Below, piece after piece: positions 5,559-48,870 of a stretch of DNA of 64,000 bases (position 1 is its first letter; each line of letters begins with the position of its first letter). Origin of the DNA: an uncultured delta proteobacterium. Its GTDB lineage: Bacteria; Myxococcota; Myxococcia; Myxococcales; Myxococcaceae. The notes under the pieces were generated by a model that saw only the letters and a list, made by a program, of their open reading frames with translations, made no database searches and had not been told where the DNA came from. A program made the position numbers and the translations under genes. The stretch is taken from contig CAVSWU010000003.1 of NCBI GenBank assembly GCA_963731795.1, forward strand, positions 1,158,216 to 1,222,215, given 5' to 3'.

Positions 5559-6341
5559 ATGAGCACTCAAGACACCCCCTTCACCCTCGCGGGGGTCACC
5601 TTCCAGTCACGGCTCATCGTCGGCACGGGCAAGTACCCGAGCCACGAGGTGATGAAGCGCTGCCACGAGGCCTCCGGCGCGGAGATGGTCACCGTGGCGG
5701 TCCGCCGCCTGGACCTGAAGGCGCGCGGCGAGGCGTCGCTGATGCACTGGATCGACACCTCGCGCATGCGTCTGCTGCCCAACACCGCCCTCTGCTACAC
5801 CGCCGAGGACGCCGTGCGCACCTGCCGGCTCGCCGAGGAGCTGGGCATGAGCAAGTGGGTGAAGCTCGAGGTGCTCGGGGATGAGAAGACCCTCTACCCG
5901 GACGTCGAGGAGACGCTGAAGGCCGCGCGCATCCTCGTGAAGGAGGGCTTCACCGTCCTGCCCTACACCACCGACGACCCCATCACCGCTCGCAAGCTGG
6001 AGGACCTGGGCTGCGCCGCCGTGATGCCGCTGGCGGCGCCCATCGGCTCGGGGCTCGGCATCCGCAACCCGCACAACATCCGCCTCATCCGCGAGATCGT
6101 GAAGGTCCCCGTCATCGTCGACGCGGGCGTGGGCACGGCCTCGGACGCGGCCATCGCCATGGAGCTGGGCGTGGACGGTGTGCTGATGAACACCGCCATC
6201 GCTGGCGCCAAGGATCCGGTTCGCATGGCCGTCGCCATGCGCAAGGCCGTCGAGGCCGGCCGCGATGCCTTCCTCGCGGGCCGCATCCCTCGCAAGGCGT
6301 ACGCCACCGCCTCCAGTCCCCTCCAGGGGCTCGTCGAGTAG
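5559..6341 (+). CDS. thiG: thiazole synthase ThiG
   Basis: 260 aa, strong ThiG similarity (…LIVGTGKY…[14 protein letters not shown]…). Confidence 0.9.
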
Positions 6342-6949
6342 TGCCCGCCGCCCCTCGGCTGATCGTCATCACCGACTGGCGGCTTCCTCGGGCTCGGCTG
6401 CTCTCGGCGCTCGAGCGCGCGCTGGAGGCAGGGCCCGAGGTCGCGGTCCAGCACCGCCACCCGGAGGCCTCCGCGCGCACCTTCCTCGAAGAGGCGCGGT
6501 GGCTCGCGGGGTTGTGCCACGCGCGAGGCAATCCGCTCTTCGTCAACGGGCGGCTGGATGTGGCGCTCCTGGTCGGCGCGAACCTGCACCTTCCCGCCCA
6601 AGGTCCCCCGGTCGAAGACGTCCGCCCTCACCTCCCCGCCGGGCGACAGATCAGCGTCGCGGTCCATGACGAGCAGGAGGCCCGAGGCGCCCGAGGCGCC
6701 GACCTGGCGCTGGTGAGCCCCGTGTACTCCCCGGGCTCGAAGCCGGGAGATACCCGTCCCCCGTTGGGCCCCGCGGGCTTCCAGGCGTTGGCGGCAGTCC
6801 TGAGCTGCCCGGCCCTGGCGCTGGGGGGCATGTCCCCGGAGAGAGCCCCCCTGCTTCCGGGCGCATATGGCTTCGCGGTCATCTCCGCTGTCCTGGAGGC
6901 GGAGGATCCAGCCGCCGTGGCCCGCGCCCTGCTGCGCGCGTCCTCCTGA
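6341..6949 (+). CDS. thiE: thiamine-phosphate synthase ThiE
   Basis: 202 aa; TMP-TENI family features; start overlaps thiG stop. Confidence 0.8.
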   Translation: MPAAPRLIVITDWRLPRARLLSALERALEAGPEVAVQHRHPEASARTFLEEARWLAGLCHARGNPLFVNGRLDVALLVGANLHLPAQGPPVEDVRPHLPAGRQISVAVHDEQEARGARGADLALVSPVYSPGSKPGDTRPPLGPAGFQALAAVLSCPALALGGMSPERAPLLPGAYGFAVISAVLEAEDPAAVARALLRASS

Positions 6950-6996
6950 GCGGGCGACCTGGGCCCTGCCCTCTCCTCTCTCCTGCCAGAAGTGAG

Positions 6997-8064
6997 ATGG
7001 AGTCGCGGTATGCTGCCCCTCCTGTGAGCCCCCCCTCTGGTATCAAGGACCTGCGCCCGCTCGCCCTCGGCGAGCTCATCGACCGCTCCGCCATCTTCTG
7101 GCGCGCCCACCTCGTGCCGCTCTTCGCCCTCTGCCTCGGCTTCGAGCTGATCAACTACATCTTCGCCAAGAGCATCACGCTCATCCTCGAGCACAGCAAT
7201 GCCTTCATGCAGGGCAACAAGGTGGTCCAGGCCCGGATCCAGGAGGACCCCACGAGCATGCTCGGCGACGCCGGCATGCTGATGATCTACCTCACCGCGC
7301 TCTGGCTCGTGCTCATCTGGAGCTACTGGCTCGCCACCCTCGTCATGACCCGGTACGTGGTGCCCCTCCAGCTCGGCGAGTCCGCTCGCCCGGCGGACGG
7401 CCTGCGCCGAGGCTTGAACCGGCTGGGCTCCTTCACCGGCGCCTACCTCCTGTCCCTGCTCTGGGGCCTCGGCATCGGCCTGCTGCTGGTGCTCCCTGGA
7501 GGCATCCTGTTCGGGCTGGGGCTCGTCCTGGGAAGGAGCGGCGCTAGCTCGGGGGCCCAGCTCCTGGGCGTCATCCTCGCCGTGGGAGGAGTGCTCGTGA
7601 GCAGCCTCGGCGGACTGGCCGCGTTCCTCTGGTACTTCCTGCGCTTCGCCCTCCTCGCGCCGGTGTTCGCCATGGAGGACCTGTCCGCCATCGCCGCTTT
7701 CCGGCGCTCGGGAGCGCTCATCTCCGGCCGCGTCGCGCCTGGCTTCACGGGCCGCGTGAAGGTCCGAGCGATGATCCTCTTCACCGCCGTCTCCGGCATC
7801 ATGATCGCCGTCACCCTCATCTTCAGCCTCCCTTCCTGGATCGTCCGAGGCGCCTATGGCCATCTGAGCGATCCTTCCGCCGTGACGGCCCACCCGATTC
7901 CTCAGGCCCTCCTCGTCCCCGTGGAGCTGTTCCAGGTGCTGGGACAGTCCATCTTCACCCCCCTGGCCCTGGTCTTCTCCGCGATGTTCTACCTGGACAT
8001 GCGCATGCGCCGGGAAGGGCTGGATCTCGAACGCCGCCTCGACACCCTCCATCCCACTCCTTGA
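6997..8064 (+). CDS. polytopic membrane protein (hypothetical; commonly first gene of DUF4129/DUF4350 modules)
   Basis: 355 aa, multiple hydrophobic helices, intact ORF. Confidence 0.65.
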   Translation: MESRYAAPPVSPPSGIKDLRPLALGELIDRSAIFWRAHLVPLFALCLGFELINYIFAKSITLILEHSNAFMQGNKVVQARIQEDPTSMLGDAGMLMIYLTALWLVLIWSYWLATLVMTRYVVPLQLGESARPADGLRRGLNRLGSFTGAYLLSLLWGLGIGLLLVLPGGILFGLGLVLGRSGASSGAQLLGVILAVGGVLVSSLGGLAAFLWYFLRFALLAPVFAMEDLSAIAAFRRSGALISGRVAPGFTGRVKVRAMILFTAVSGIMIAVTLIFSLPSWIVRGAYGHLSDPSAVTAHPIPQALLVPVELFQVLGQSIFTPLALVFSAMFYLDMRMRREGLDLERRLDTLHPTP

Positions 8065-8091
8065 TGGGAACTCCTCTCTCATGAGCGCCGC

Positions 8092-8973
8092 GTGCTGACC
8101 TTCGTCCTGCCATTGCTCCTCGCCTCGGTGCCGTGCGCAGACCTGGAGGCGAACGCTCGGCTCATCGAGGAGACCTCGAGGAGCCGTCCCGGCGAGCTGA
8201 CTGTCATCATCGAAGGCGTCGAGTCGCGCTCCGGGGGCATCCCACTGCGCCCCGCCGGAGCTGTTCCCCCTGAACAGCTCGCCCGCGACGTGGTGACCCG
8301 ACTGCGTGAGGCCTGTGCGCTCCAGGAAGCGGCGGCGCGCGCTCAGGAGCCCCTGCCCGTGAGCGCTCCAGATCGGCTCCGAGCCATCCTCGATCGGCCC
8401 GAGTTCTCCCAGGCGCGCAAGCGCAACACGGATCTCCTCCAGCGGCTCCTCCGCCAGATCGACGCCTGGCTCAGCGGCTTCTTCCAGTCCCGAGGCGCCC
8501 AGAGCTTCGCCGTCGTCACTCGCGCCGTGATGCTGGGGCTGGCCCTGGCGGTGGTGCTCTGGGGCATCTTGTGGTTCCGACGCTGGCGCCGCCCCTCCGC
8601 ACCCCAGCCCCGCGTCAGCATGGGTGCCGCCGCGCCGCTCGCGCTCGATTCACCGCGCGAGCACCTGCAGCGCGCCCGGGAGTCACTCGCCTCGGACCCG
8701 CGTGAGGCCATCCGCCAGGGATTGCTCGCCCTGCTCTCCACGCTCGAAGAGCGCAAGCTGGCCCGGCCAGACCGTGTGAAGACGAACCGTGAGCTCGCCG
8801 CCGAGCTGCCCGGCCGTGGGGCCCCGGGCCCGCTCGTGCATGAAGTGGAGCGGCTCGTGCGCTGGTACGACCGCACCTTCTATTCGCTGTCCCCTGTGCC
8901 TCCCGAGGAAGCCGCCAGCTTCGTCGCGGACGTGGAGCGCCTGCATGCCTCGCCTCCAGGAGGGGTGGCATGA
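8092..8973 (+). CDS. DUF4129 domain protein
   Basis: N-terminal signal/TM, central TM, C-terminal DUF4129-like region (…RLVRWYDRTFYS…). Confidence 0.65.
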   Translation: MLTFVLPLLLASVPCADLEANARLIEETSRSRPGELTVIIEGVESRSGGIPLRPAGAVPPEQLARDVVTRLREACALQEAAARAQEPLPVSAPDRLRAILDRPEFSQARKRNTDLLQRLLRQIDAWLSGFFQSRGAQSFAVVTRAVMLGLALAVVLWGILWFRRWRRPSAPQPRVSMGAAAPLALDSPREHLQRARESLASDPREAIRQGLLALLSTLEERKLARPDRVKTNRELAAELPGRGAPGPLVHEVERLVRWYDRTFYSLSPVPPEEAASFVADVERLHASPPGGVA

Positions 8974-10154
8974 AGAACCTGCGCACCTTCCTCTTCTTCG
9001 GGCTCCTCATCACCCTCGCGGCGGCGCTGGGGCTTGCGACACGACAGGCACCGCCGGAGTCCACGCTTCCCTCGGTGGACAATCCGGGTCCACTCGGGCT
9101 CCGCGCGCTCTACATGTATCTGCGCGAAGGCGGCGCCACGGTGGAGGCGCACCAGGACTCCCTCGAAGCCTTGCCCCCGGGCACCCGAACCGTCGTCATC
9201 GCGGCGCCTCACGCTCGGGCCGTGTCTTCAGCGGAAGTGGAGGCGCTCAAGCGCTTCGTCCGCGCTGGAGGGACACTCGTGTTCCTCGCTTCGCGGGAGA
9301 AGGAGCCGGACCAGCCGGCGATGGAGCAGTGGCTGGAGCTGGAGCGAGGCCCATGGCTCCCCTCGAATTCGAAGGGACTCCCCCCGGGTGATCAGGATCT
9401 CGGAGGCACCACCGTGGAGTTCTGGCTCCCCGCGGGCGCGGCGCGAGACCTGAGTGCCCTCCGAGTGTCTCGCGACCGGGGAATCACCGTGGGCCTGGCG
9501 GAGGCCGTGCCCCTCGCGGGACTGGAGAACAGCGTGGTGCTCTGGCGGCTCGGGCTGGGCCAGGGCGAGGTGTATGTGGCCGCGGGACCGGACCTCGCGG
9601 AGAACCGGCGGCTCGAGCTACTCGACAACCTGCGCTTCTGGGATGCGTTGGCCGCCCGCGGCCCCATGATCTTCGACGAGTTCCACCACGTGAAGGCGCC
9701 ACCCCCGCCCCTGTCACGGGGCCTCTGGGTGTTCGCGCTCCAGTGCCTGGCAGTGGGAGGGTTCTACGTGTTCGCCCGCGGCACACGCTTCGGAGCGCCC
9801 AGGCCCCAACTGCCCGAGCGCCACCGCTCGTCGCTGGAGTATGTGCAGTCGATGGGCTGGCTCGCGCGCCGGGCCAGGGTGGAGCGTGAGCTCCTGCCGG
9901 AGCTGGCCCAGCACCTGCGCCAGCTCATGCAGGATCGGTTGGGCATCTCCCTCGCGCTCTCCGAGGAGGAAGCCGCTCGGATGCTCGAACAACGCTGCGG
10001 CATCCCCTCCGCTCACTACCTGGAGGCACGCGAGGAGCTGGCTCGAGCGCTCGATGCACGCACCCTCTCCCCCAAGGACTACGCTCGCGTGGCGGCCCGG
10101 TACGCGCGGCTCGAGGCTGTCATCACCGGCCGAGCATCCTCCGGGACCGCTTGA
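8970..10154 (+). CDS. DUF4350 domain protein
   Basis: 394 aa, N-terminal TM, DUF4350-like periplasmic domain; start overlaps upstream stop (ATGA). Confidence 0.65.
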   Translation: MKNLRTFLFFGLLITLAAALGLATRQAPPESTLPSVDNPGPLGLRALYMYLREGGATVEAHQDSLEALPPGTRTVVIAAPHARAVSSAEVEALKRFVRAGGTLVFLASREKEPDQPAMEQWLELERGPWLPSNSKGLPPGDQDLGGTTVEFWLPAGAARDLSALRVSRDRGITVGLAEAVPLAGLENSVVLWRLGLGQGEVYVAAGPDLAENRRLELLDNLRFWDALAARGPMIFDEFHHVKAPPPPLSRGLWVFALQCLAVGGFYVFARGTRFGAPRPQLPERHRSSLEYVQSMGWLARRARVERELLPELAQHLRQLMQDRLGISLALSEEEAARMLEQRCGIPSAHYLEAREELARALDARTLSPKDYARVAARYARLEAVITGRASSGTA

Positions 10155-10161
10155 GCCCTCG

Positions 10162-11364
10162 CTACAGGCTGCGGCCCGCCTTGAGCATGGCCTCGCCCAC
10201 GTGGCCGCGGATCTCCTCGACTCGGGCATCCCAGCTCTCGTGGAAGATGCGCTCGGCTCGCTCGCGGGTCGGACCGCCGCCCTCGGCCAGGCACTCATCC
10301 ACCTTGCGGACGAAGTCCTCCGTGGAAGCGGCCAGCTTGCAGAGCCCCACCTTGCGGACCTCGGGGATGTCCGTGGACACCACCGGGAGCCCCGCGGCCA
10401 GATACTCGCGGACCTTGAGCGGGTTGGCGTTGAGCGTCAGCTCGTTGACCTTGAAGGGCATCAACGCCACGTCGAAGGCCCTGCAGTAGCCGGGCAAGCT
10501 CGTGTACGGCCTGCGCCCGAGCAGGTGGATGTTGGGCACCGCCTTCATCGCCGACACGTCGCAGTCCGGCGCCACCTTGCCGATGATGACCACCGAGCCC
10601 TCCGGGTGTGCCTTGGCCGTGGCGATGATCGCCTCCTGGTCCACCCAGTCGGCCATCAGGCCGAAGAAACCGATGATCGGCCTCGGCAGCTTCGCGATGT
10701 CCTCGGGAATCGGCGTCGCCGGATCACACGCCTTGACGAAGTGCTGGTAGTCCACGCCGTGCCGCACCAGCACCGTGTTCGAGTTCACCTTCGCCTTGTT
10801 CTCGCGCAGGCGCTCGGCGGAGGTGATCACCAGGTTCGCCTTGCGCAGCAGCCGCTCCTCCAGCTCCGCGATGTGGCGCCCATTGGTGTCGCTGAACGCC
10901 GAGAACTCGTCCACGCAGTGGTAGACGACGAACTCCTCGCCCAGCGTGCCCGACACCGGCGCCGAGGCCGGCAGGAAGGACCAGGAGATGGGCCGCTTGA
11001 AGTGGAGCTTCGCCATCGCCCGCTTCACCTGGAGCCGCAGCAGCTCCCGGTTCGTGGCTCGCACCGCCTCCGAGCCGTAGAACGGGATGGCCAGCGGCGC
11101 CAGCACGAAGAGGTTGGGCGCTACCTCGCGAATGCCCTCGGCGAACGAGGCCAGCTTCCGCCAGATGCGCTGGAGATCATACGTGTTCGCCTTGGGCGCG
11201 CGGTTGCCGATGCTGTTGACCCACAGCACTCGGTTGTCCCTCGCGAGGATCCGCATGATGTGGACCTTCGACAGCGGATCCCCATCCCAGTCATTGGAGA
11301 ACACCACCAGGTCCCGCCCCCGCAGGGCCCGGCGTGCCACAGCCACATCTTCACCGCGCCGCAT
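10162..11364 (-). CDS. glycosyltransferase family 1 (GT4-type)
   Basis: 400 aa, C-terminal GT1 motif …EYLAAGLPVVSTDIPE…. Confidence 0.85.
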   Translation of the reverse strand: MRRGEDVAVARRALRGRDLVVFSNDWDGDPLSKVHIMRILARDNRVLWVNSIGNRAPKANTYDLQRIWRKLASFAEGIREVAPNLFVLAPLAIPFYGSEAVRATNRELLRLQVKRAMAKLHFKRPISWSFLPASAPVSGTLGEEFVVYHCVDEFSAFSDTNGRHIAELEERLLRKANLVITSAERLRENKAKVNSNTVLVRHGVDYQHFVKACDPATPIPEDIAKLPRPIIGFFGLMADWVDQEAIIATAKAHPEGSVVIIGKVAPDCDVSAMKAVPNIHLLGRRPYTSLPGYCRAFDVALMPFKVNELTLNANPLKVREYLAAGLPVVSTDIPEVRKVGLCKLAASTEDFVRKVDECLAEGGGPTRERAERIFHESWDARVEEIRGHVGEAMLKAGRSL

Positions 11365-11410
11365 GTCTCGTCTCCTGTATGGAAGTCCCGCGAGGTGACG
11401 CGCTCGGGGC

Positions 11411-12469
11411 TCAGGTCGCCATGGCCGGCCGCTGGCGCTCGAGCCGCGGTGCCGACAACTCCGTGTACAGCCCGAGCATCACCGGCCCCGCATCCGGAGA
11501 GGCCGACTCCAAGGGTCCCTCGACGAGAGCCTGCCGCACTCGCAGCGCCAGCGCCGGCGCCTGGCCGGACTGGAACAGGTACGTCCCCTCGGGCCGAGCA
11601 CACACGTCGCTGGCCACGCAGGGCACCCCGAGCGCCAGCGCCTCACGCACGGAGATGGCATCCCCATCGTGCGTCGTCGGGCGGATGAACGCGTCGCACC
11701 TCGACAGGAGGCCGAGCACCTCCTCATGTTCCAGCTCGCCCAGATCCTCCAGGTACGGCGCCACGTGCGTCTCGCGAGCGTCGCGCGCGAACTCCGGAGT
11801 CCTCATCCCAGGCCCGAAGACCGCGAGCCCCACTCCCGGCAGCTCCCTCGCGAGCATCCGCAGCGCGCGGAACATCACCCTCCGCCCATAGACCGGCGAT
11901 GGGTGGTGCGCCATGGCCAGCAGCGGCGCGCGCCGGGCCCTCGCCTGCTCCACCGCGGCAGTCACCGGGCCCGGCTTCACCTGCGAGGCGCAGAACGCCG
12001 GCTGGACGAGGAGCTTCTCCTCGGGCACGCCACACCCGACGAGCGCCGCCTTCACCGCTGGCGACACCGCCACCACGCGCGAGTACCCAGCGAGCGCGGC
12101 CCGGGCCAAGGCCCTGCGAGCCGAGGAGCCCGCCAGGAAGTCCGGCAGCAGCCCCGAGTGCAGGGTGATGATCCGAGGCGATCGAGGCGCCGGAACCCCC
12201 GCCGCCGCGGCCAGCATCCAGGACTTCGGGTTGTTGCCGCTGGTGTGGACGTGCACCGTCCACCCAGCGTTCAAGAATCCCGCGAGCCGCAGGCCGAACT
12301 TCGCGAGGGATGGGACCGGGATGACGTCCGGAGCCGGCCGGCCGCCCTTGCCGATATCCAACACCTTCGCCTCGACACCACGCCCGCGAAGAAACCGGTG
12401 CAGTTGTTGAACATGGATCGCCACCCCACCATGCGGCGGTGGATAGTCGCCAATCAGAAGCACGCGCAT
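11411..12469 (-). CDS. glycosyltransferase family 1 (GT4-type)
   Basis: 352 aa, MRVLLIGDYPPPHGGVAIHV N-terminus typical GT4. Confidence 0.8.
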   Translation of the reverse strand: MRVLLIGDYPPPHGGVAIHVQQLHRFLRGRGVEAKVLDIGKGGRPAPDVIPVPSLAKFGLRLAGFLNAGWTVHVHTSGNNPKSWMLAAAAGVPAPRSPRIITLHSGLLPDFLAGSSARRALARAALAGYSRVVAVSPAVKAALVGCGVPEEKLLVQPAFCASQVKPGPVTAAVEQARARRAPLLAMAHHPSPVYGRRVMFRALRMLARELPGVGLAVFGPGMRTPEFARDARETHVAPYLEDLGELEHEEVLGLLSRCDAFIRPTTHDGDAISVREALALGVPCVASDVCARPEGTYLFQSGQAPALALRVRQALVEGPLESASPDAGPVMLGLYTELSAPRLERQRPAMAT

Positions 12470-12487
12470 GAGGCTCGAACCTCCGAG

Positions 12488-13000
12488 TTACTGGAGCGGG
12501 AGCCCCGTGGAAGCCGCAGGCACCTGTCGCCGAGGCAGCAGCCCCATCTCACGCTGGTACGTGGTGAGGGGATCCGGATCCTTGCGGAGCACCTTGGCGG
12601 GCACTCCCGCGACGATCGTGGCCGTCGGCACATCCTTGAGCACCACCGCGTTCGCGCCGATCACCGCGAAGTCGCCAATGTGGATGTTGCCGAGGATCTT
12701 CGCGCCCGCGCCGATACGGACGTAGTCGCCGATCACTGGCGCACCCTCGAGGCCCGAACGTCCGCCAATGGTCACCTGCTGGGAGACGAGGCAGTGGCGG
12801 CCCATCCGGGTCGCCTTGTGGATCACGACTCCGATGCCGCCGTACCCGAGCTGCGTGCCCTCGCCAATCTCCGCCTCGAAGGGGATGTACGAGTTGTGCA
12901 GATAGTAGATGGCCTTGCGCAGCACCGTCGGTAGCAATGGGACTCCGCGCAGGTACAGCCTGTGCGCGAGCCGATACAGCATCATCGCATCCACACCCAT
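12488..13000 (-). CDS. hexapeptide-repeat acetyltransferase (serine O-acetyltransferase/WcaB-like)
   Basis: Left-handed beta-helix repeats …IGDYVRIGAGAKILGNIHIGDFAVIGANAVV…; internal start MGVDAMMLYRL. Confidence 0.75.
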   Translation of the reverse strand: MGVDAMMLYRLAHRLYLRGVPLLPTVLRKAIYYLHNSYIPFEAEIGEGTQLGYGGIGVVIHKATRMGRHCLVSQQVTIGGRSGLEGAPVIGDYVRIGAGAKILGNIHIGDFAVIGANAVVLKDVPTATIVAGVPAKVLRKDPDPLTTYQREMGLLPRRQVPAASTGLPLQ

Positions 13001-13096
13001 CGCCGCCCTCCTCCCAACCCAGCTTGTGGACCACAAGCAAGCTAGGTACCCACCCCTGAGGAGGGAAGTCCTCCCCAAGTGTCCGATTCAGCGCGA

Positions 13097-14640
13097 TCAC
13101 CCCGTCCCGCGGGACCGCATTCCCGCCAACACTCGCAGCGGCCGGATGCCCGTGGCGTACAGCACCGCGACGTATCCGATGATGAACAGCAACCCCGCGA
13201 CCGCCAGCGGCAGCACCCGCCAGAAGAAGCCCTCGGGCAGCCTCACCCATGCGCTCTCCGTGCCTGCTCGCAGCGCGAAGATGCCAACCGCCGCCGCGAC
13301 CGCCGCCAGGGCCGCCTTGCCCAGCTCCACCCACGGGATGACATCCCGGACTCGCAGCGGCCGCTCCGGCGTGGACAGCGCGGCGGGCACTCGCACCAGC
13401 AGCGTCGCCTTGCCCACCATCTCCGCGATCCCCCACGAGGCGATGCCGCCCTTCATCCCGAACCGGTGCACGCCCCACCACACGAGCGGCACCGTCACCA
13501 CCGCCTTGATGAGGTACGAGATGAAGATGGAGCGGGTGTGCCCTCGGGCGCGCAGCACGCCATCCATCGGCAGAATGGACAGCACCACGCCCAGCACGCT
13601 CACCCGGAAGATGGGCACCGCGGGCAGGAACTTCGCGCCGAAGAGCGCGGCGATGAACTCGGGCGCCGCGGCGAAGAGGAACGCCGCGAAGGGCAGGAAC
13701 ACGAAGGCGAGCTTCCCCGCCGCCTCGCGGAAGGCCACCACCCCCTCCTCGAGCCGGCCCGCCTTCTCCAGCTCGCCCAGGCGCACCATCAGCACCTCGC
13801 TGGTGGGCGTGTAGAGGAGATCCACCACCGGGAGCTGGAAGCAGCCCACCCGATAGAGCGCGTACAGCGCCGGAGCCACCGCGCTGCGCCACCACGATAG
13901 AGGTGCGCGTTCTGCTGCGGAATCGAGAGCGCCATGGCCGCGCCGAACGGAGCCGCGTACACGAGCTGCTCGCGCAGCAGCGGCCCATTCACCAGCGGCC
14001 CGGTCGAGCCCCGCGCAGCGCGATCACCCAGGCCGCCAGGTAGCGCAGGCCGCGCGAAGCCGGCCACCGCCACCATCATCCCGTGCAGCGAGGCGCCCAG
14101 CAGGCACGGCACCACCATGACCAGCCGCGCGCACGGCGTCCGACACCAGGTACACCACGGCCGACTGCCGCGTGCGCCCCTGGCTGGTGAGGGACATCTC
14201 CAGCGGGAACGCAGCCGATCAGCAGCGCCGGTGTAGACCGCCAGCGGCAGCCGGTAGTGCAGCAGCGCGGGGTTGGAGAACCAGCCCGGCCACCGGCCCC
14301 AGCAGCACGGCACACCAGCGCCGCGGCCACCACGCCCGCCGCCGGTCATGAAGAGCAGCGCCTGGCCCAGGTAGGGCCGCTTCTGCTCCGCGCGCGGCAG
14401 GAAGTAGTAGAGGCTCTGCACCACGCCGAACGGCAGGACGTAGTAGAGCGTCGTGGCGATGAGGAAGAGCTGGTAGTACGTCCCGTACTCCTCGAGGCGC
14501 GAGCACCCGCGCGAGCACGAGCGGGATGGACAGCGTCAGCCCGGCGGTGAAGAGCCGGGCCAGCACCAGGGGGCCGGCCTTGCCCAGGAAGCTCCCGGAC
14601 GCGGCCGGCGCCGGGGATGCGCTCACGTGGCTTCTCCTCT
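13097..14640 (-). pseudogene. Wzx-like polysaccharide flippase (MOP superfamily), at least 3 frame disruptions
   Basis: C-terminal half intact in ORF 13097..13879(-); N-terminal pieces (…GKAGPLVLARLFTAGLTLSIPLVLARVL…, …VQSLYYFLPRAEQKRPYLGQALLFM…) lie in ORFs 14219..14683(-) and 13789..14424(-) in different frames. Confidence 0.6.
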
Positions 14641-15863
14641 CCGACGAGGCTCGCCTCCGATGCGCAGACCGCTGGGCGGCCACCGGCGCGCGACACGTGC
14701 GGGCGCTTGCCCAGCACCGGGTGGCTCACGCCCAGCACGCCGAAGCAGTCGTCGAGCTGGCACGCCGGTGAGCGTCGTCGAGTAGTCCCCCAGCATGCCG
14801 ATGCTGAAGTTCTCCCACAGCACCTTGCGCTTGAGGGTGAACGGATCCCCGCCGATCCGGTTGGGCAGGTCCTCCGTGGTCACCGCCGAGCGGAACCCGT
14901 GGGCCGCCAGCACGCGGATGACCTCGTCCGAGTACCAGCCGTTGCAGTAGGCGAAGTCCACGCACCGGGCTTGCTCCAGCTCGCGCTCGATGGCGCGCTT
15001 GGACTCGACGGATCTCGCGCTCCACCACCTCGGGCGGCTCCAGCGTCAGCACGGTGTGGCCCAGCGTGTGCGCGCCGAACTCGAAGCCGTCCCGAGCCAT
15101 GCGGCGCACCTCGTCCCAGTCCATGATGTCGCCCTGCTCGGGCATGAGGTCCGCGGCCGCCGCCCAGCTGCTGCTCCAGCGCGTCGATGACCTCCGCGAG
15201 CGACGCGGCCGGGTGCTCGCCGATGAAGTCGTCCAGCGCGCGCCGAGGCCGTCTTCTGCCCGGAGAGGATGGGCTCGAGCAGCTCAGTCGCCGGCGCCGG
15301 CAGCGCGCGCGAAGTAGGGCCGGAACCGCCGCTCCTTCGCATGCCGCACCAGGTGGAAGAGCCGATCGTGGTTGAAGCGCCGGTCCGTGCCGATGAAGGC
15401 CGTGGGCAGGTAGATGATGGCGGGCACGCCCATCCGCTTCAGGACGGGGTAGGCGTACCGGTACACGTCCCGGTAGCCGTCATCGAAGGTGACGACGCAC
15501 AGATCCTGCTTCGCCGCCCTGCGCGCCCGCCATCACGTCCACCGCGTCGCCGATGGAGGCGAACTCGTAGCCCGCCGCGGCGGCCTCCTCCAGGTGCCGC
15601 CGGAACGTCTCCTGGGAGATGAGCAGCCCGGGAATGGAGCGCTGCAGCTCGCCTGTGAAGTCCTCCACCACGCGGTGGTAGCTGACGATGAGGATCCGCC
15701 GCCCACCGGACTGGCCTCGGCGGTACGCCGCCAGCGCCTTGCGCAGCCCGCTGTAGTGCAGCAGTCCCGCCGCCGCCACCTTCACCGCCCGTCCGCACCA
15801 ACCGACCCGCCCCCATGACCTTCCCCATGCGCAGAGAAACTCTCGCCGGGTCGATAAATGCAC
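14623..15863 (-). pseudogene. polysaccharide deacetylase (NodB-homology, CE4), at least 3 frame disruptions
   Basis: Fragments LIVSYHRV… (15480..15863), YRYAYPVLKRMGVPAIIYLPT (15284..15466), …FEFGAHTLGHTVL… (14726..15145), C-term MDFAYCNGWYSDEV… (14623..14961) each in a different frame. Confidence 0.6.
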
Positions 15864-16121
15864 GGGCGGTGCCAGCCCGGGCCAGCGACTACCGCACAGT
15901 GGGGACGTTCCCGAGGCAGAGCCTGTGCCACCCCTGAAACAAACGGGCCCCTCCGTAGAAAAACTTTCCCGATCCGGGTCCCGTCATGCAGGAAACGCCG
16001 CAGCGTGCCTGGGAAGGCGTGTCGCCCTGCTGCCCAGACCGCCGCCAGGCAGGGGAGCGTCCCTGTCAAGCCCGCTTTCACTGGAGAAAGGCGCGATTTC
16101 CAGTTACGAACGCACCCCTCG

Positions 16122-16784
16122 ATGGAAGCCCCCGCCACCGCGCCTCCCGCGATCGCCCTGCACGACGTGAGCAAGCGCTACGGGCGTCACTGGGCCCTGG
16201 CGCGCCTCACCTACTCGCTGCCTCCAGGGCGCTCGCTGCTCCTCACGGGCCACAACGGCTCCGGGAAGACGACGCTGCTGCGGCTGGTGGCCACCGCGCT
16301 GTCCCCCACCGCCGGCCGAGTGGAAGTCCTCGGGCGCAACACCGTCACCGACCGTGACGCCGTGCGTCAGGACGTGGCCCTCCTGTCCCACGCCAGCTTC
16401 CTCTATGAGGATCTCACGGCCCACCAGAACCTCACGGTGCTGGCGCGGCTGCTGGGCCTGCCCTCTGCGGCGGAGACCGCCAGCGAGCTGCTGACCCGGG
16501 TGGGCCTCACGCGGCGCACCGACAGCCCCGTGCGCCAGTTCAGCGCCGGCATGCGCAAGCGCCTGGCCATCGCGCGGCTGCTGATGAAGAAGCCCGCCCT
16601 GGCGCTGCTCGACGAGCCCTTCGGCGAGCTGGATCCGGCCGGCATCGAGGCCATGGAGATCATCATCCGCGAGCTGAAGACCCGGGGCGTCACGGTGGTC
16701 CTCGCCACCCACCTCGTCGAGCAGGGTCTGTCTCTGTGCGAGGAGCGCCTTCACCTCCAGGAAGGCCGAGCGGTGCCCGCATGA
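16122..16784 (+). CDS. ccmA: heme exporter ATP-binding protein CcmA
   Basis: MEAPATAPPAIALHDVSKRYGRHWAL…GHNGSGKTTLLR; ATG at 16122 inside longer ORF; stop overlaps ccmB start (ATGA). Confidence 0.8.
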   Translation: MEAPATAPPAIALHDVSKRYGRHWALARLTYSLPPGRSLLLTGHNGSGKTTLLRLVATALSPTAGRVEVLGRNTVTDRDAVRQDVALLSHASFLYEDLTAHQNLTVLARLLGLPSAAETASELLTRVGLTRRTDSPVRQFSAGMRKRLAIARLLMKKPALALLDEPFGELDPAGIEAMEIIIRELKTRGVTVVLATHLVEQGLSLCEERLHLQEGRAVPA

Positions 16785-17477
16785 CTCGCCCCCGTCCCAT
16801 TGGCCTGTTGCGCTCTACGCTCGTCCTGCTGGGCAAGGATCTGCTCATCGAGTGGCGCACGCGCGCCCGCCTCAACGCGCTGATCTTCTTCGCGCTCTCC
16901 ACGCTGCTGCTGTTCTCGTTCGCGCTGGGGCCGGACACCAAGCTGCTCGAGCGCAACGCGGGCGGCTACCTGTGGCTGGCCATCCTCTTCGCCAGCACCC
17001 TGTCCCTGGGCGAGTCCTTCCGCGTGGAGCACGAGAACGCCTGCCTGGACGGCCTGCGGCTGGCCCCGGCGGACGCGCGCGCCATCTTCCTGTCCAAGGC
17101 GGTGGGCAACACGCTGCTGCTGGTGGTGCTCGGCGGCCTGCTCATCCCGGTCATGGTGGCGCTCTACGGGGTGAAGGTGATGCTCGGGCGTGGGAGAGCT
17201 GGCGACCACGCTGGTGCTCGGGTGCATGGCGCTTGCCGCCCCAGGGACCGTGTATGCGGCCATCGCCAGCAACGCCCGCGCGCGGGACGTGCTGCTGCCT
17301 CTGCTATTGTTCCCGCTGATCGTTCCCGCCCTGCTGGCCGCGGCCAAGGCGATGATGCTCGTGCTTCAGGGTGACCCGATGAATCAGCTCGGCTCATGGT
17401 TCGGTCTGCTTGGCGGATTCAACCTGATCTATTGGGGCCTGGGGTTCGTGCTGTTCCCGCGGGTGATCGAGGACTAA
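16781..17477 (+). CDS. ccmB: heme exporter permease CcmB; frameshift near 17195
   Basis: N-part in ORF 16736..17374, C-part ([24 protein letters not shown]…[12 protein letters not shown]) in ORF 17190..17477. Confidence 0.7.
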
Positions 17478-17478
17478 C

Positions 17479-18254
17479 ATGAGCGCGCTGTCTCTGTTCA
17501 CCATCTGGCTGCCCCTCATCGTCCTGGTGCTACTGCCCACCGTGGGCCGTAAGTATGCGCACGTGACGCTGCCGGTGTACGCGCTGCTCCTGGTGGGCAT
17601 CGGCCACTACTGGGGCCTGGCCGTGGCGCCTCCGGATCGCGAGATGGGCGACGTGCAGCGCATCATGTACGTGCACGTGCCCGGCGGTGTGGATCGCGCT
17701 GATCGCGCTCACGCTCAACTTCGCGCTGCTCGGTGACATACCTCTTCAAGCCGAGCTGGAAGACGGACTCGCTGGCGGAGGCCTCCGCCGAGGTGGGGCT
17801 GCTGTTCGGCACCGTGGGCGTGATGCTGGGCTCCATCTGGGGCCGGCCCACCTGGGGCGTGTACTGGACGTGGGATCCGCGGCTCACCACGGCGGCCATC
17901 ATGCTGGTGGCCTACACGGGCTACATGGCGCTGCGCCGCTTCGTGGAGGATCCCGAGAAGCGCGCGGTGTGGAGCTCCGTGGTGGGCATCATCGCCGCGG
18001 TGGATCTGCCCATCATCTGGTTCTCGGTGAAGTGGTGGCGCAGCCTGCACCAGGAGCAGTCCTCGCCCAGCACCATGGACCCGGCCTTCTATCTGCCGCT
18101 GCGCCTGAGCGCCTACGGCCTGCTGGCCTTCGTGATCTACTTCCTCATGCGGCGCTACCGGATCGCCCTGGCCGAGCGCAACGCCGAGGTGGCCCTGCCC
18201 GAGGCGCTGCCCACCGACAGCGCTCCGGCCAACCGGTCCGCGGGGGTGGCGTGA
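17479..18254 (+). CDS. ccmC: heme exporter protein CcmC; two frame disruptions (~17690, ~17745)
   Basis: …[10 protein letters not shown] / [17 protein letters not shown] / …[28 protein letters not shown]… spread over three frames. Confidence 0.7.
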
Positions 18255-18442
18255 TGAGCTCGATGATGAGTCTGATGGTGCTGGCCCAGGCGGCCGCGGA
18301 CCCGGGTGTCCGCCGGGGGATCCAAGGCGGCTGGGGCTATGTGTGGACCAGCTACGGAATTACCTGGGGCGCGCTCGCGCTCTACTCGCTGTCGCTGTGG
18401 TTGCGGCGGCCCAAGAACTCGCCTGTTGGCCCGAAGGAGTGA
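18254..18442 (+). CDS. ccmD: heme exporter protein CcmD
   Basis: 62 aa [12 protein letters not shown]…WGYVWTSYGITWGALALY… single TM; TGATG overlap with ccmC. Confidence 0.6.
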   Translation: MSSMMSLMVLAQAAADPGVRRGIQGGWGYVWTSYGITWGALALYSLSLWLRRPKNSPVGPKE

Positions 18443-18445
18443 TCC

Positions 18446-18933
18446 ATGACGCCTGTCGTACGTAACCGCCTCATCGCCGTGGCAGCCCTCCTGGTGGCCG
18501 GTGCGGGCCTGGCCTTCGTGGCCTTCGGCAACATCGGCAACAACCTGGTCTACTACTGGAGCCCGGCGGAGATGATCAGCCAGGGCGAGAAGGCCTATGG
18601 CCCCACCATCCGCCTGGGCGGCGTGGTGAAGCCCGGCTCCATCCAGTGGAACGCCGAGCACACCAGCCTGAACTTCCAGGTCGCCACCGATCACAAGCCG
18701 GACGCGGTGGCCGTGACGGTGCACTCCACCGAGGTGCCGCCGGCCGATGTTCCGTGAGGGCATCGGCGTGGTGGTGGAGGGCACCTTCGACAAGTCCCAG
18801 GTGTTCAGCTCCAACCGGCTGATGGTGAACCACTCCAACGAGTACCGCGCGCCCAAGCCGGGCGAGAAGCCGCGCGAGTGGAAGGAGAGCCTCACCGACA
18901 GCTCCGCCACGCGCGACGACGAGGCCTCAGTGA
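18446..18933 (+). CDS. ccmE: heme chaperone CcmE; frameshift ~18750 and a second near the 3' end
   Basis: N-term TM + …VTVHSTEVP then MFREGIGVVVEGTF…LMVNHSNEYRAPKP (heme-binding His/Tyr region); no in-frame stop before ccmF, but GTGA overlap motif at 18930-18933. Confidence 0.65.
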
Positions 18934-20956
18934 ACGCGACGATTGGATATGGGCTCGTGCTCGGCGGGCTGGTGTGCGCCGCGTTCGGGGCCGTGATTGG
19001 CTTGACGAGCGGCCTGCGCCAGAGCGAGGCGGGCTCTCAGTGGGTGCGGCGCGCGGTGTGGGGCTTCTTCCTCTGCATGGCGGGCTCCAACCTGACCATG
19101 GTGTACGCGCTGGTCACCCACGACTTCAGCCTCGCGTACGTGGCCCAGGTGGGCAGCCGCGCCACGCCGCTGCTCTTCACAGATCGTGTCCCTGTGGAGC
19201 GCGCTGGAGGGGTCCATCCTCTTCTGGGGCCTCATCATGGGCACCTACCTGCTGGCCTTCTCGCTGGTGCACCGCAACGAGCACCGGCGCTACATGTCGC
19301 TGGCGCTGGGCACCATGCTGGGCGTGGGCGTCTTCTTCGCCTTCCTGATCGCCGGCCCGGCCAACCCCTGGCACGTGCTGGCGCAGGTGCCGCCGGACGG
19401 CCCGGGGCCCAACCCGCTGCTGCAGAACCACATCCTCATGGTCATCCACCCGCCCATGCTCTACCTGGGCTACGTGGGCATGACGGTGCCCTTCGGCATC
19501 GCGGTGGCGGGCCTGCTGCGCGGGGAGCTTGGCGACGCGTGGATGGCGCCGCTGCGGCGCTGGATCGCTCATCCCGTGGACGTTCCTCTCGGTGGGCATC
19601 ATCCTCGGCGCGTGGTGGGCGTACGCGGTGCTGGGCTGGGGCGGCTACTGGGCGTGGGATCCGGTGGAGAACGCCTCGTTCCTGCCGTGGCTGACGGCCA
19701 CCGCCTTCATGCACTCCACCCTGGTGCAGGAGCGCAAGCAGATGCTCAGGCTGTGGACCATGAGCCTGGCGCTGGCCAGCTTCGTGCTGACGATCCTCGG
19801 CACGTTCATGACGCGCTCGGGCATCTTCAACTCGGTGCACTCCTTCACCCAGTCGGACATCGGGCCCACGTTCCTGGTGTTCATCGCCTTCCTGCTGGTG
19901 TTCTCCATCGTGCTGCTGGCCACGCGCGGGCACCTGCTGGTGGCCAAGGGCCAGATCAACTCGTTCATCTCGCGTGAGACGAGCATCCTGGTGAACAACC
20001 TGGTGTTCGTGGCCATCACCTTCACGGTGCTGCTGGGCACGGTGTACCCGCTCGTCTCCGAGGCGGTGCGCGACGTGCGCGTCAGCGTGGGCGAGCCGTA
20101 CTTCAACAAGATGGCCGTGCCGGGCGGCATCGCCGTGCTCTTCCTCATGGGCGTGGGGCCGATGCTGCCGTGGGGCACGCCGAACAAGGACGCGCTGCGG
20201 CGGCAGTTCCTCTTCCCCGCCGCCGTGGGCCTGGTGGTGGCGGCGATCTGCTACGCGGTGGGGCTGCGCGGCTTCTACCCGCTGCTCACCTTCGGGATCG
20301 CCGGCTTCGTCACCATCGTCACCCTGCGCGAGCTGGCGGCGCCGATCCGCGTGCGCATGAGCGAGCGCAAGGAGAGCCTCGGCACGGCGCTCGTCCAGAG
20401 CGTGTCCAAGGCCCGCCGGCGCTTCGGCGGCTACGTGGTGCACCTGGGCATCATCTTCATCATCGTGGCGGTGGCGGCCTCGCACGCGTACGTGAAGCAC
20501 ACCTCCGGCACGATGAAGGTTGGCGAGGCGATCAAGCTGGACGGCTACACGCTCAAGTACCTGGGCCCGGCCGAGGGCAAGGAGCCCCACCGCACCTACG
20601 TGGCGGCGCGCATGGAGGTGACGACGCCTGGCGGCAAGGTGCAGGAGTTCCAGCCGCGGCTGAACTACTACGAGCGCAGCACGGACCCCGTCGGCACGCC
20701 CGCGGTGCGCGAGTCGCCGCAGGAAGATCTCTACATGTCGCTGATGGCCTTCTCCGAGCGGGGGACCACGGCGAGCCTCAACGTGTGGGTTTTCCCGCTG
20801 GTGGGGTGGATCTGGTACAGCATCCCCATCCTGGTGCTGGGCGCGCTGATCTCGCTGTGGCCGACGCGGCGGCGCGTGGCGGTGGGCGCGAGCGCTCCGG
20901 CCACGAGCGGTGCCCCGCCGGTGGCGGACAGTGACATGAACCGGGGTGCGGCATGA
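18930..20956 (+). CDS. ccmF: cytochrome c-type biogenesis protein CcmF; frame disruptions ~19190 and ~19565
   Basis: Three frame segments with CcmF signatures (…SLWSALEGSILFWGLIMG…, …GGYWAWDPVENASFLPWL…), ~670 aa total. Confidence 0.75.
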
Positions 20957-21609
20957 CGGGGGAAAACCTGGGCGCGCTCGCCTTCGTTGCAGTGCTGCTC
21001 CTCTCCCTGCTGACGGGCTTCTGGCGGAATCCGCGCGTGAAGCGGTGGAGAACCATTCTGAGAGTCCCACTGCTCGCGGTTGCCGTCTCCGCGGCGCTGC
21101 TCATCGTGATGCTGAAGGGCTTCGGGCGGGATCCGCACGAGGTGCCCTTCATGTTGGCCGGCAAGCCAGCCCCGCCCTTCACCTTGCGCGCGCTGAACAG
21201 CGGCAAGCCGGTGAGCCTGGAGCAGTTCAAGGGCCGCCCGGTGGTCATCAACTTCTGGGCTTCATGGTGCGGCCCCTGCCGGCAGGAGCACCCGGTGCTC
21301 GACTGGGGCGCGCGGGAGCTCGGCAATCAGGCGGTGTTCCTGGGCATCATCTTCGAGGACACCGAGGACAACGCGCGGGAGGTCCTCCAGGAGGAGGGCG
21401 CCAGCTTCCCGCAGCTGGTGGATCCGCGCTCGCGCATCTCGGTGGACTACGGCGTGTCGGGCGTGCCGGAGACGTACTTCATCGACGCCAACGGCATCAT
21501 CATGGGCAAGCACGTGGGCCCCATCGATCCGCAGACGCTGTCCACCCGCATCAAGGAGCTGAATGCCCGGACGGCCTCCACCGCGACAGGCTCGGCCCAG
21601 AACCCTTGA
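20953..21609 (+). CDS. ccmG: thiol:disulfide interchange protein CcmG/DsbE
   Basis: TM anchor, thioredoxin fold with WASWCGPCRQE active site; ATGA overlap with ccmF. Confidence 0.85.
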   Translation: MTGENLGALAFVAVLLLSLLTGFWRNPRVKRWRTILRVPLLAVAVSAALLIVMLKGFGRDPHEVPFMLAGKPAPPFTLRALNSGKPVSLEQFKGRPVVINFWASWCGPCRQEHPVLDWGARELGNQAVFLGIIFEDTEDNAREVLQEEGASFPQLVDPRSRISVDYGVSGVPETYFIDANGIIMGKHVGPIDPQTLSTRIKELNARTASTATGSAQNP

Positions 21610-21660
21610 GCCGTCAGGATCGCGCTCCCGGAGCTCGCACTGAGCGGAGGTAAGTGAGTC

Positions 21661-22831
21661 ATGCACCAGTGCACTGAGTGTGGCACGGTCGCCGCGGAGC
21701 CCCGCCTGAAGTACTGCGAGGAGTGCGGGGCGCGGATGCCCGAGTACAAGCCGCCTCCCCTGCCCCCCGAGGGCGGCCCGGGTGGAGCGGCGCTCGCGGA
21801 CTCCCGCCGCGCCACGCCCGCCTATACCGGCCCGAAGTGGCTGGCGCATGTCCCCGCGCACTCGCCCACCTCGCTGGGCGTCATCCTGCACGTGCTGGCC
21901 CTGTGGCTCTCCATCCTCCCCTTCCTCGCGGGCGTGGGGCCGTTCTGGTCCTTCGTGATGACGGTGGGCGGGGTGCTCATGATCGCCCGGGAGTACCGCA
22001 CCTCGAACCTGCCGAACCCGCTGGTGGACTGGATCCCCGAGTCGCTCCTGCCGAGCTTCCTGCCCGTCGTGTACTCGGCGCTGGCCGTGGCGATCGTGCT
22101 GCCGATGGTGGAGTTCAGCATCCAGCCGCTGCTGTGGGCGGGCGGCACGGTGCTGGTGGTGCGCGACCAGTGGGGCAAGGCCTTCACGGGCCCGGGTGGC
22201 TACGCGGAGATCTTCGATCCTCGCGCGGTGGTGCGCGGCCAGCGGCTGCTGGCGTTCGCGGGCATCGTCGTGTGCGTGCTGGCGCTCTTCTTCACGTGGA
22301 CGCTCGAGGGTGAGGTCACCGCCAGCGGGTACGCCTCGGCTGCCTCGGGGCAGCTGCGCTCCATCAACGTGCCGCAGCCGGGCGGCGACTCGATCTACGG
22401 CGGCGCGGGGGGGCTCCGGGTGTCAGGGTTCGAGCTGCCCGTGGGCTCCACCGTGGAGATCGGGCTGCTGGCGATCCTGATGCTGCTGATGCTGAAGCCC
22501 GAGGTGGAGCGCCCCGTGTGGCTGCGCTTCGTGCCCGCCGGGATCACGGTGATCTCCCTGGCCTGGGTGCTGGTGAACATGCGCATGAAGGTGGGGCCGA
22601 TCCTGTTCCTGGCGGGGCTCATCCCCGTGGGGCTCGTCTCGGTCCTCCAGGCGCTCGGCCGCGATGAGCATGCCCCCGGAGGACTACGCCCACGAGCCGC
22701 CTCCCGACGAGTCCTTCGCCCAGGACGCCGACCTGCCTCCGGAGGAGGACTTCCCGACCGAGAACGACCCGTTGCCGCCCGACGAGGCAGAGCATCCGCC
22801 TTCCGAGGATGATGAGGACATGCGCGGCTGA
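21661..22831 (+). CDS. zinc-ribbon polytopic membrane protein with acidic C-terminal tail (hypothetical); frameshift ~22665
   Basis: N-term CTECG…CEECG zinc ribbon, 6+ hydrophobic helices; last ~50 aa read in +1 frame give DYAHEPPPDESFAQDADLPPEEDFPTENDPLPPDEAEHPPSEDDEDMRG with much better GC3 than the annotated frame. Confidence 0.6.
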
Positions 22832-22957
22832 GGGCTTCCCCCGCTCCTGGCCCGCCACCCTGGCCAGGCAGGCAGGGGCTGGCTGGGAAGATGGCCCCTC
22901 CCGTAAAGGTTTCGCTGTGCAACACTGCGCCTTGGCGCTAGGTAGGCCTCGCCCGGG

Positions 22958-23479
22958 GTGCCCCGAATGACTTCTGCCCTCCTCTCTCTTGCTCTCGCCG
23001 CCGGTCTCGTGACCGGCCAGTTCGCTCCTCAGCAGGCCGGGAGCGATCCCCTCACCGATCCGGCCCTCGAGGCCCGCGTGCAGAAGCTCGGCAAGGAGCT
23101 GCGCTGCGCCGTGTGCCAGGGCGTCTCCATCGCCGACAGCCCGGCCTCCATGGCCCGTGCCCAGCTCGACAAGGTGCGCGAGCTCGTCGCCGCGGGGAAG
23201 TCCGATGAGGAGATCACCGACTACTTCGTGGCTCGCTACGGCGAGTGGGTGCTGCTGGAGCCCCCGAAGCATGACTGGAACCTGCTCGTGTGGCTGGGGC
23301 CTGTCGCCCTGATCGTGGGCGGAGCCTTCGTCATCTCGCGGCAGATCAAGCGGGGACCTGAGAGCGCCAACACGACTCCGGCCGCCAGCGCCACCCCGGC
23401 GGCCGCCGCACCCTCGGCGCCCGCGACCGAGGCCGAGGATCCCTACCTGAAGGCCGTTCGCCAGGAGCTGGAGCGATGA
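22958..23479 (+). CDS. ccmH: cytochrome c-type biogenesis protein CcmH/CycL
   Basis: Signal peptide, LRCAVCQG (LRCxxC) motif, C-terminal TM. Confidence 0.85.
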   Translation: MPRMTSALLSLALAAGLVTGQFAPQQAGSDPLTDPALEARVQKLGKELRCAVCQGVSIADSPASMARAQLDKVRELVAAGKSDEEITDYFVARYGEWVLLEPPKHDWNLLVWLGPVALIVGGAFVISRQIKRGPESANTTPAASATPAAAAPSAPATEAEDPYLKAVRQELER

Positions 23480-25683: not shown

Positions 25684-25710
25684 GATCTACCGACTTTCAG
25701 AGAGAAGGAA

Positions 25711-27997: not shown

Positions 27998-28001
27998 GTG
28001 T

Positions 28002-29147: not shown

Positions 29148-29181
29148 TGCCCAACCCCTTCCCGCCCACTCGCTGTGCCCG

Positions 29182-30585: not shown

Positions 30586-30649
30586 CAGGCATCTCCCACC
30601 GCTCCCCCCGGGCAGCCAGGGAGCGGTGGGCGCCACCGGCCCTGCTCCC

Positions 30650-31393: not shown

Positions 31394-31417
31394 CTCCTCA
31401 GCTTCCTTTTCTCAGCC

Positions 31418-32827: not shown

Positions 32828-32853
32828 GTTCCGCTCCTCCTCCCTCAGGTGCA

Positions 32854-33996: not shown

Positions 33997-34053
33997 CGCC
34001 GCCCTCCTCTCCCGCTTCCCTCACCCCTCCGCCCTCGGTCCCTCTCCCCCGCC

Positions 34054-47234: not shown

Positions 47235-48870
<1,636 letters not shown>

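Follow-up and report, generated by a model that had tools for sequence, protein, structure and literature searches.

Positions 10162 to 15828 of the window, the whole 64,000-nucleotide stretch of contig CAVSWU010000003.1 analysed here, carry on the minus strand five genes that form, as judged by sequence comparison, the orthologue of the characterised exoL-P operon of Myxococcus xanthus (MXAN_3259-3263), here in a Hyalangium-like myxobacterium. The spore-coat polysaccharide system to which that operon belongs is itself already known. Two of the genes, exoM for a flippase and exoL for a deacetylase, look broken in the deposited sequence, and the core of the pathway lies 8.7 kb away, beyond an operon for cytochrome c maturation (ccm). 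Taken as a whole, the locus is very probably a spore-coat operon in which the damage to exoM and exoL consists of insertion errors in the assembly consensus, and in which the placement of ccm between the two exo tracts is conserved. The 'broken' state of exoM and exoL almost certainly reflects sequencing or assembly errors and not gene decay.

Identity of the exoL-P operon

The original prediction, made from the letters of the window, saw in this block the usual second half of a Wzx/Wzy pathway, which in M. xanthus is a separate exo locus; it named a Wzx flippase, a CE4 deacetylase, an acetyltransferase of the hexapeptide type and two GT4 glycosyltransferases. Pfam searches recover all five between 10162 and 15828 on the minus strand, and the separate locus in M. 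xanthus is exoL-P. The genes are as follows.

10162 to 11364, minus strand: exoP orthologue, an intact GT-B (GT4-like) glycosyltransferase of 400 amino acids (aa); Pfam Glyco_trans_1_4, 39 bits
11411 to 12469, minus strand: exoO orthologue, an intact GT4 glycosyltransferase of 352 aa; Pfam Glyco_transf_4 and Glycos_transf_1
12488 to 13000, minus strand: exoN orthologue, an intact hexapeptide-repeat acetyltransferase of 170 aa resembling serine-O-acetyltransferase (SAT); Pfam Hexapep
13097 to 14626, minus strand: exoM orthologue, the Wzx flippase of spore-coat polysaccharide, in about six frame segments
14623 to 15828, minus strand: exoL orthologue, a CE4 polysaccharide deacetylase, split over frames

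The product of exoP is 92% identical to Hyalangium gracile ExoP across 400 of 400 residues. ExoO shows 90% identity to its H. gracile counterpart and 93% to that of a Hyalangium sp. metagenome-assembled genome (MAG). For ExoN the best NCBIfam matches are EPS_EpsC and cysE, both under their cut-offs; alignment with relatives places its start at 13000, not at 13078. In M. xanthus, ExoN is a paralogue of EpsC/SAT, and MXAN_3260 is ExoM, the spore-coat polysaccharide flippase (PMC7484181). MXAN_3259-3263 constitute the exoL-P operon, and exoL mutants yield no detectable resistant spores (bioRxiv 10.1101/2023.07.26.550624).

Used as a query, the longest flippase fragment finds proteins of 505-506 aa in Hyalangium, Archangium, Stigmatella, Cystobacter, Corallococcus and Myxococcus; among the matches listed, several carry the name 'spore coat polysaccharide flippase ExoM'. 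Proteins of H. gracile find all five genes by tblastn, in order and on the minus strand. Deacetylase, Wzx, SAT-like acetyltransferase, GT4 enzyme and further glycosyltransferase occur in M. xanthus exoL-P in the identical order and strand, with a -24/-12 element upstream. The flanks of the window locus match those of both H. gracile and M. xanthus, with a divergent ccmA on the upstream side and DUF4350, DUF4129 and thiG on the downstream side. The proteins of H. gracile and M. xanthus are 67-84% identical to one another across the operon. Because gene order, flanks, the ExoM homologues and the published MXAN assignments agree, the locus is taken to be the orthologue of the characterised operon. 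Full-length identity together with synteny ties its flippase to ExoM (MXAN_3260) and its deacetylase to ExoL (MXAN_3259). NCBIfam holds no dedicated model for ExoM or ExoL, and membership here rests on these two lines. In contrast to M. xanthus, about 22 extra bases break up exoM and exoL in the window as deposited; we judge these bases artefactual.

Window-specific insertions in exoM, exoL and ccm

The window has a G+C content of about 69%, so that raw lists of open reading frames (ORFs) are crowded with spurious frames. True frames were located by plots of third-position GC (GC3) by frame together with a frame-tracking hidden Markov model (HMM). By these measures the reading frame of the minus strand changes about 12 times from 13135 to 15789, more densely than anywhere else in the window. 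Searched against Pfam, the raw ORF fragments give weak or partial flippase matches, and several have no match. The ORF at 13097-14023 holds a Polysacc_synt_3 fragment at 17.8 bits, and the two parts of Polysacc_deac_1 fall in ORFs that differ in frame, profile positions 4-46 in 15284-15532 and positions 47-98 in 14726-15145. Searches by tblastn against the raw window proved misleading, with single-frame alignments at 63% identity bridging stretches that are out of frame, and nucleotide alignment with close relatives was used instead.

A four-way nucleotide alignment joined the window to the Hyalangium sp. MAG (90-93% identity) and to H. versicolor and H. gracile (87-88%). In all three relatives exoL and exoM are each a single intact ORF. 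The window has 24 specific insertions between 13886 and 15852, of which 21 add a single base, two add 2 bp and one adds 3 bp. Eleven of these fall in exoM (10 of 1 bp and 1 of 2 bp) and 11 in exoL, or 12 if the coding sequence starts at 15828; one of those in exoL is an in-frame insertion of 3 bp. The original prediction had named flippase and deacetylase as the two most disrupted genes, with at least 3 breaks each, and the insertion counts and frame switches bear this out. The coding sequences of exoN, exoO and exoP have no window-specific insertions, and exoP has no window-specific indels of either kind. The comparison with relatives spans 2-35 kb of the window, and it also finds single-base insertions in the adjoining ccm operon and in exoG of the core.

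13886, 13897, 14016, 14053, 14126, 14213, 14229, 14282, 14312, 14345 and 14499: insertions in exoM
14646 (3 bp, in frame), 14668, 14691, 14764, 14960, 14973 (2 bp), 15009, 15154, 15240, 15308, 15525 and 15791: insertions in exoL
16122 to 24468, plus strand: ccm operon (ccmA, B, C, D, E, F, G, a 370-aa gene, ccmH, ccmI), divergent from exoL
17188 (ccmB); 17682 and 17726 (ccmC); 18746 and 18912 (ccmE); 19180 and 19567 (ccmF): the seven 1-bp insertions in ccm genes
26880 to 27997, minus strand: exoG, GNAT/Acetyltransf_6, divided into three frames by 1-bp insertions at 27196 and 27785
13886 to 19567: the insertion patch, dense at 13886-15852 (about one insertion per 80 bp) and sparse at 17188-19567 (seven sites)

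One further window-specific insertion of 1 bp lies near the 3' end of the 370-aa gene (22780). Between 19.6 and 35 kb insertions occur only in exoG and the 370-aa gene; no other coding sequence in the compared span is affected, and there are none in coding sequence from 5560 to 13880. Since the same kind of insertion occurs in exoL and exoM and in ccmB, ccmC, ccmE and ccmF, the damage is best described as a patch of roughly 13.9-19.6 kb that crosses an operon boundary. A minor effect of the two insertions in exoG is that the mechanical ORF at 25711-28026 resembles an exoH-exoG fusion.

When the window-specific bases are deleted, exoL becomes an ORF of 365 aa and exoM one of 505 aa, with no internal stops. 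Mismatches between the corrected ORFs and the nearest relative fall by codon position in the order 3 > 1 > 2. Corrected ExoM aligns to M. xanthus ExoM without gaps at 77% identity and covers the whole Polysacc_synt_3 profile, positions 1-293 of 293, at 36.7 bits against a cut-off of 23. Corrected ExoL is 84% identical to M. xanthus ExoL, full length and essentially gapless; it scores 74.8 bits against Polysacc_deac_1 (cut-off 23.1) and contains the CE4 motifs TFDDG and HTLGH. The ratio of nonsynonymous to synonymous substitution rates (dN/dS) is 0.31-0.35 for exoL in pairs that include the window and 0.26-0.32 in pairs of intact relatives; for exoM the corresponding ranges are 0.24-0.32 and 0.17-0.26.

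Natural indels in bacteria are deletion-biased and driven by slippage. Of the approximately 33 frame-disrupting indels found here every one adds bases, and unpaired deletions are absent (binomial p about 2e-10); only 8 of 30 single-base insertions are compatible with a homopolymer, as against 43% of the region's bases that lie in runs. Deletions do not equal or outnumber insertions, slippage contexts do not prevail and nonsense mutations are absent after correction, contrary to what pseudogenes should show.

One reading of the damage is real pseudogenisation, in a lineage that has lost spore-coat synthesis, with decay under way in exoM, exoL and exoG. These are the exo genes hit hardest, and all three do belong to one dispensable, development-specific pathway, yet like lesions occur in ccmB, ccmC, ccmE and ccmF of the adjacent housekeeping operon and so are not confined to dispensable genes, while exoN, exoO and exoP of the same operon are untouched. 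For about 22 frameshifts to arise within 2.6 kb, the genes would have had to evolve neutrally for a long time, over which stops and deletions should have accumulated, and there are none of either. The insertion-only lesions, mostly outside homopolymers, are the opposite of the bacterial mutational spectrum. The slightly raised dN/dS of exoM, and a CTG codon where relatives have the annotated start Met of ExoL, would fit decay; dN/dS nevertheless does not approach 1, the bias by codon position is intact, and the corrected proteins keep 77-84% identity to those of another genus. Given that substitutions bear the mark of purifying selection, twenty-odd independent frameshifts could not have built up biologically. 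We regard pseudogenisation as very unlikely.

A more novel reading is that the insertions are real and that this uncultured Hyalangium lineage has very recently inactivated flippase, deacetylase, one GNAT protein and several ccm genes by an unusual insertion-only process. If true, this would imply a non-sporulating, cytochrome-c-deficient myxobacterium; we give it only a slender chance. The converse, that the window sequence is correct and the relatives carry errors or changes, has nothing in its favour but the formal symmetry of pairwise alignment. It is refuted by the single unbroken ORFs, 365-385 aa and 505-506 aa long, of M. xanthus and of three independent Hyalangium assemblies, and by the absence of every insertion from all three of these Hyalangium relatives, so that its probability is close to nil. 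Programmed frameshifting or phase variation was also considered and was rejected; the sites number about 22, lie outside repeats and are absent from relatives.

Three points weigh on the other side from insertion errors in the consensus. The dN/dS of exoM is marginally above that of intact-intact pairs, which may represent slight relaxation or alignment noise near the insertion sites. The ATG annotated as the start of ExoL in relatives corresponds to a CTG at 15734 of the window, though a conserved ATG exists upstream. Finally, the origin in error is inferred from the pattern of indels, not observed. The original prediction had left decay and poor assembly as alternatives; poor assembly is supported by insertions without deletions and by the ORFs that correction restores, and decay is disfavoured by the affected ccm genes, by the lack of stops and by dN/dS near the range of intact genes. 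In that case the 5.7-kb patch would be made up of single extra bases that remained as errors in the assembly consensus. The source may reasonably be guessed to be a long-read assembly, and low coverage or a mixed-strain consensus at the polymorphic ccmA-exoL spacer is a plausible cause.

The main value of this case is in quality control of assembly annotation. Gene callers will label exoM, exoL, exoG and four ccm genes here as fragments or pseudogenes, and a naive reading would infer lost sporulation or lost cytochrome c maturation. Consensus error can be told from decay by a signature of insertion-only indels outside homopolymers, a patch that crosses operon boundaries, normal dN/dS, and no stops after correction. 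Further same-strand frame switches reported by the HMM at 47260-47792 (minus strand) and 60771-61692 (plus strand) may be isolated indel errors or mere gene boundaries.

Placement of ccm between the exo tracts

The second exo tract of the window encodes the core of the pathway.

24484 to 34626, minus strand: exoI-H-G-F-E-D-C-B-A, spore-coat polysaccharide core, identified by Pfam and tblastn

From exoI to exoA the products are a GNAT protein, an aminotransferase, a second GNAT protein, a CofD-like protein, a polyisoprenyl-phosphate hexose-1-phosphate transferase (PHPT), a bacterial tyrosine kinase (BY-kinase), a polysaccharide co-polymerase (PCP), a beta-barrel protein and an outer-membrane polysaccharide export (OPX) protein. 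Nine proteins of the Hyalangium sp. MAG match exoA-I by tblastn at 88-94% identity over their full length, with exoG in three frames. In M. xanthus, ExoA and ExoB are a short-OPX/beta-barrel export pair (PMC9601211).

If the M. xanthus system is a guide, ExoE would prime undecaprenyl phosphate, and ExoO and ExoP, with ExoK encoded elsewhere, would extend the repeat unit. The acetyltransferase ExoN and the deacetylase ExoL would modify the unit and ExoM would flip it across the inner membrane; ExoJ, acting with ExoC and ExoD, would polymerise it, and ExoA and ExoB would export the product. A PHPT initiator, glycosyltransferases, Wzx, a PCP with BY-kinase, and OPX are shared with generic Wzx/Wzy clusters for capsule or O-antigen, such as the group 1 capsule of E. 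coli. The exo cluster differs from these in being split by a housekeeping operon, in a Wzy gene that would lie elsewhere, and in an OPX protein of the short D1D2 type paired with the 18-strand beta-barrel ExoB (PMC9601211).

The distance from the start of exoL (15828) to the stop of exoI (24484), estimated originally at about 9 kb across the ccm operon, measures 8.66 kb and is filled by ccmA-G, the 370-aa gene, ccmH and ccmI. The operon begins at the ATG at 16122, and Pfam identifies ABC_tran, CcmB and TPR_CcmH_CycH among its products. Ccm proteins of H. gracile match the window by tblastn at 76-95% identity, with ccmB, ccmC, ccmE and ccmF split across frames. The gene at 21661-22812 on the plus strand, between ccmG and ccmH, encodes a conserved protein of 370-410 aa without a Pfam domain; conservation is 74% in Hyalangium, about 43% in Archangium and about 35% in Corallococcus and Myxococcus.

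Layout was compared across 46 related loci that contain exoL, drawn from seven or more genera and from a single distantly related Myxococcota MAG. A divergent ccmA occurs within 3 kb of exoL in 44 of the 46, and the other two end at contig ends. The genera with this junction are Hyalangium, Archangium, Cystobacter, Corallococcus, Myxococcus, Pyxidicoccus and Vitiosangium. The ccmA-exoL spacer is 330-650 bp long, or about 1.5 kb in three loci with an extra gene. On the other side, exoI directly adjoins ccmI in the Hyalangium sp. MAG, H. versicolor and H. gracile. These three genomes share with the window the order and orientation from exoA to thiG, that is exoA-I, ccm and exoL-P, at 87-93% nucleotide identity; unlike the window, they have exoL, exoM, exoG and ccmB/C/E/F all intact. 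Additionally, ccm lies between exo tracts in Corallococcus and Myxococcus.

According to the published account of M. xanthus, an insertion of 25.729 kb separates the Wzx tract from the Wza-Wzc-Wze tract, and the Wzy tract (ExoJ, ExoK) is 223 kb distant (Islam et al., PMC7310880). The separation of exoA-I from exoL-P is thus 8.7 kb in the window against 25.7 kb in M. xanthus (PMC7310880), the greater distance arising because Myxococcus has extra genes between exoI and ccm. In M. stipitatus, four genes intervene next to exoI. Corallococcus coralloides has a Wzy_C gene, a gene for a beta-helix protein and a GT4 gene between exoI and ccmI (locus L057, 11401-15774); these may be the equivalents of exoJ and exoK, which would make the spore-coat cluster of this species nearly contiguous. 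In Stigmatella sp. ncwal1 a pel-type cluster (PelG, a PelF-like glycosyltransferase, PelD, PelB and a PelA-like protein) follows exoI directly and replaces ccm (locus L055, 11228-21200). The two exo tracts of Archangium minus are 2.2 Mb apart.

The presence of ccm between two exo tracts is an ancestral, conserved arrangement in the family, and the layout of the window is the normal one for Hyalangium, the most compact version of a pattern conserved across Myxococcaceae and Archangiaceae. The original prediction regarded this linkage as unusual and proposed comparison of synteny with related myxobacteria. That comparison finds conserved synteny and a normal arrangement, with the divergent ccmA/exoL pair in 44 of 46 loci and the whole order the same in three Hyalangium genomes. 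As the layout is conserved in relatives and the split in M. xanthus was already published, it is not an oddity. The compact exoA-I / ccm / exoL-P order in Hyalangium is a small biological addition, as is a sigma54-type element upstream of exoL that is conserved in every relative examined.

The position of ccm might instead reflect functional or regulatory coupling, such as shared control through the divergent ccmA-exoL spacer, and not a relic of synteny. The persistence of this junction and its spacer across at least seven genera, including the distant Myxococcota MAG, speaks for such coupling, as does the conserved sigma54-type element within the spacer; that element, however, is oriented toward exoL only. 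To our knowledge, no biochemical link connects cytochrome c maturation with spore-coat glycan synthesis. The exoA-I side, moreover, is freely broken, by 2.2 Mb in Archangium, by the pel cluster in Stigmatella and by insertions in Myxococcus. In Anaeromyxobacter the cluster is contiguous and the intervening genes are absent (PMC7310880). Coupling is therefore unlikely, and a conserved arrangement inherited within the family is preferred.

The ccmA-exoL spacer and the start of exoL

The conserved element of the spacer lies close to the likely start of exoL.

15859 to 15874, minus strand: sigma54-type -24/-12 element, TGGCACCGCCCGTGCA, 31 bp upstream of the exoL ATG at 15828

The element TGGCACCGCCCGTGCA matches the sigma54 -24/-12 consensus well and does not vary across an alignment of five species. 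It is the sole match in the window to the relaxed form TGGCAY-N6-TGCA. A looser pattern still, TGGCA[CT]-N6-TGC[AT], is found between ccmA and exoL in all 44 related loci examined, at a similar distance in each, 122-188 nt from the Met at which ExoL is annotated to start. In M. xanthus the enhancer-binding protein Nla6 binds the exoL-P promoter region (bioRxiv 10.1101/2023.07.26.550624), and the putative element fits the published dependence on Nla6. By analogy with M. xanthus, an enhancer-binding protein resembling Nla6 would activate transcription of exoL-P at a sigma54-type promoter. No RNA family of Rfam is found across the whole window.

Position 15863 is the GTG of an ORF in the wrong frame, and exoL likely starts at the ATG at 15828. 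ExoL of relatives is annotated from a Met equivalent to 15734. The in-frame sequence at 15735-15828 on the minus strand is conserved from Hyalangium to M. xanthus and opens with ATG 15828, so that the CTG of the window at the annotated Met is not a loss of the start codon; we considered such a loss as a sign of decay and rejected it for this reason. As far as the alignment indicates, the annotated ExoL of H. gracile and M. xanthus may accordingly be too short by about 31 residues.

The spacer also varies in structure. An extra gene of about 1.1 kb, absent from the window, H. versicolor and H. gracile, lies between ccmA and exoL in the Hyalangium sp. MAG, where it encodes an Ala/Gly-rich, apparently membrane-associated protein of 376 aa (locus L052, 19525-20655, minus strand; also L003, L004 and L050). 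Two related MAGs with the same spacer of about 1.5 kb presumably hold the same extra gene. This structural polymorphism lies at the centre of the insertion patch.

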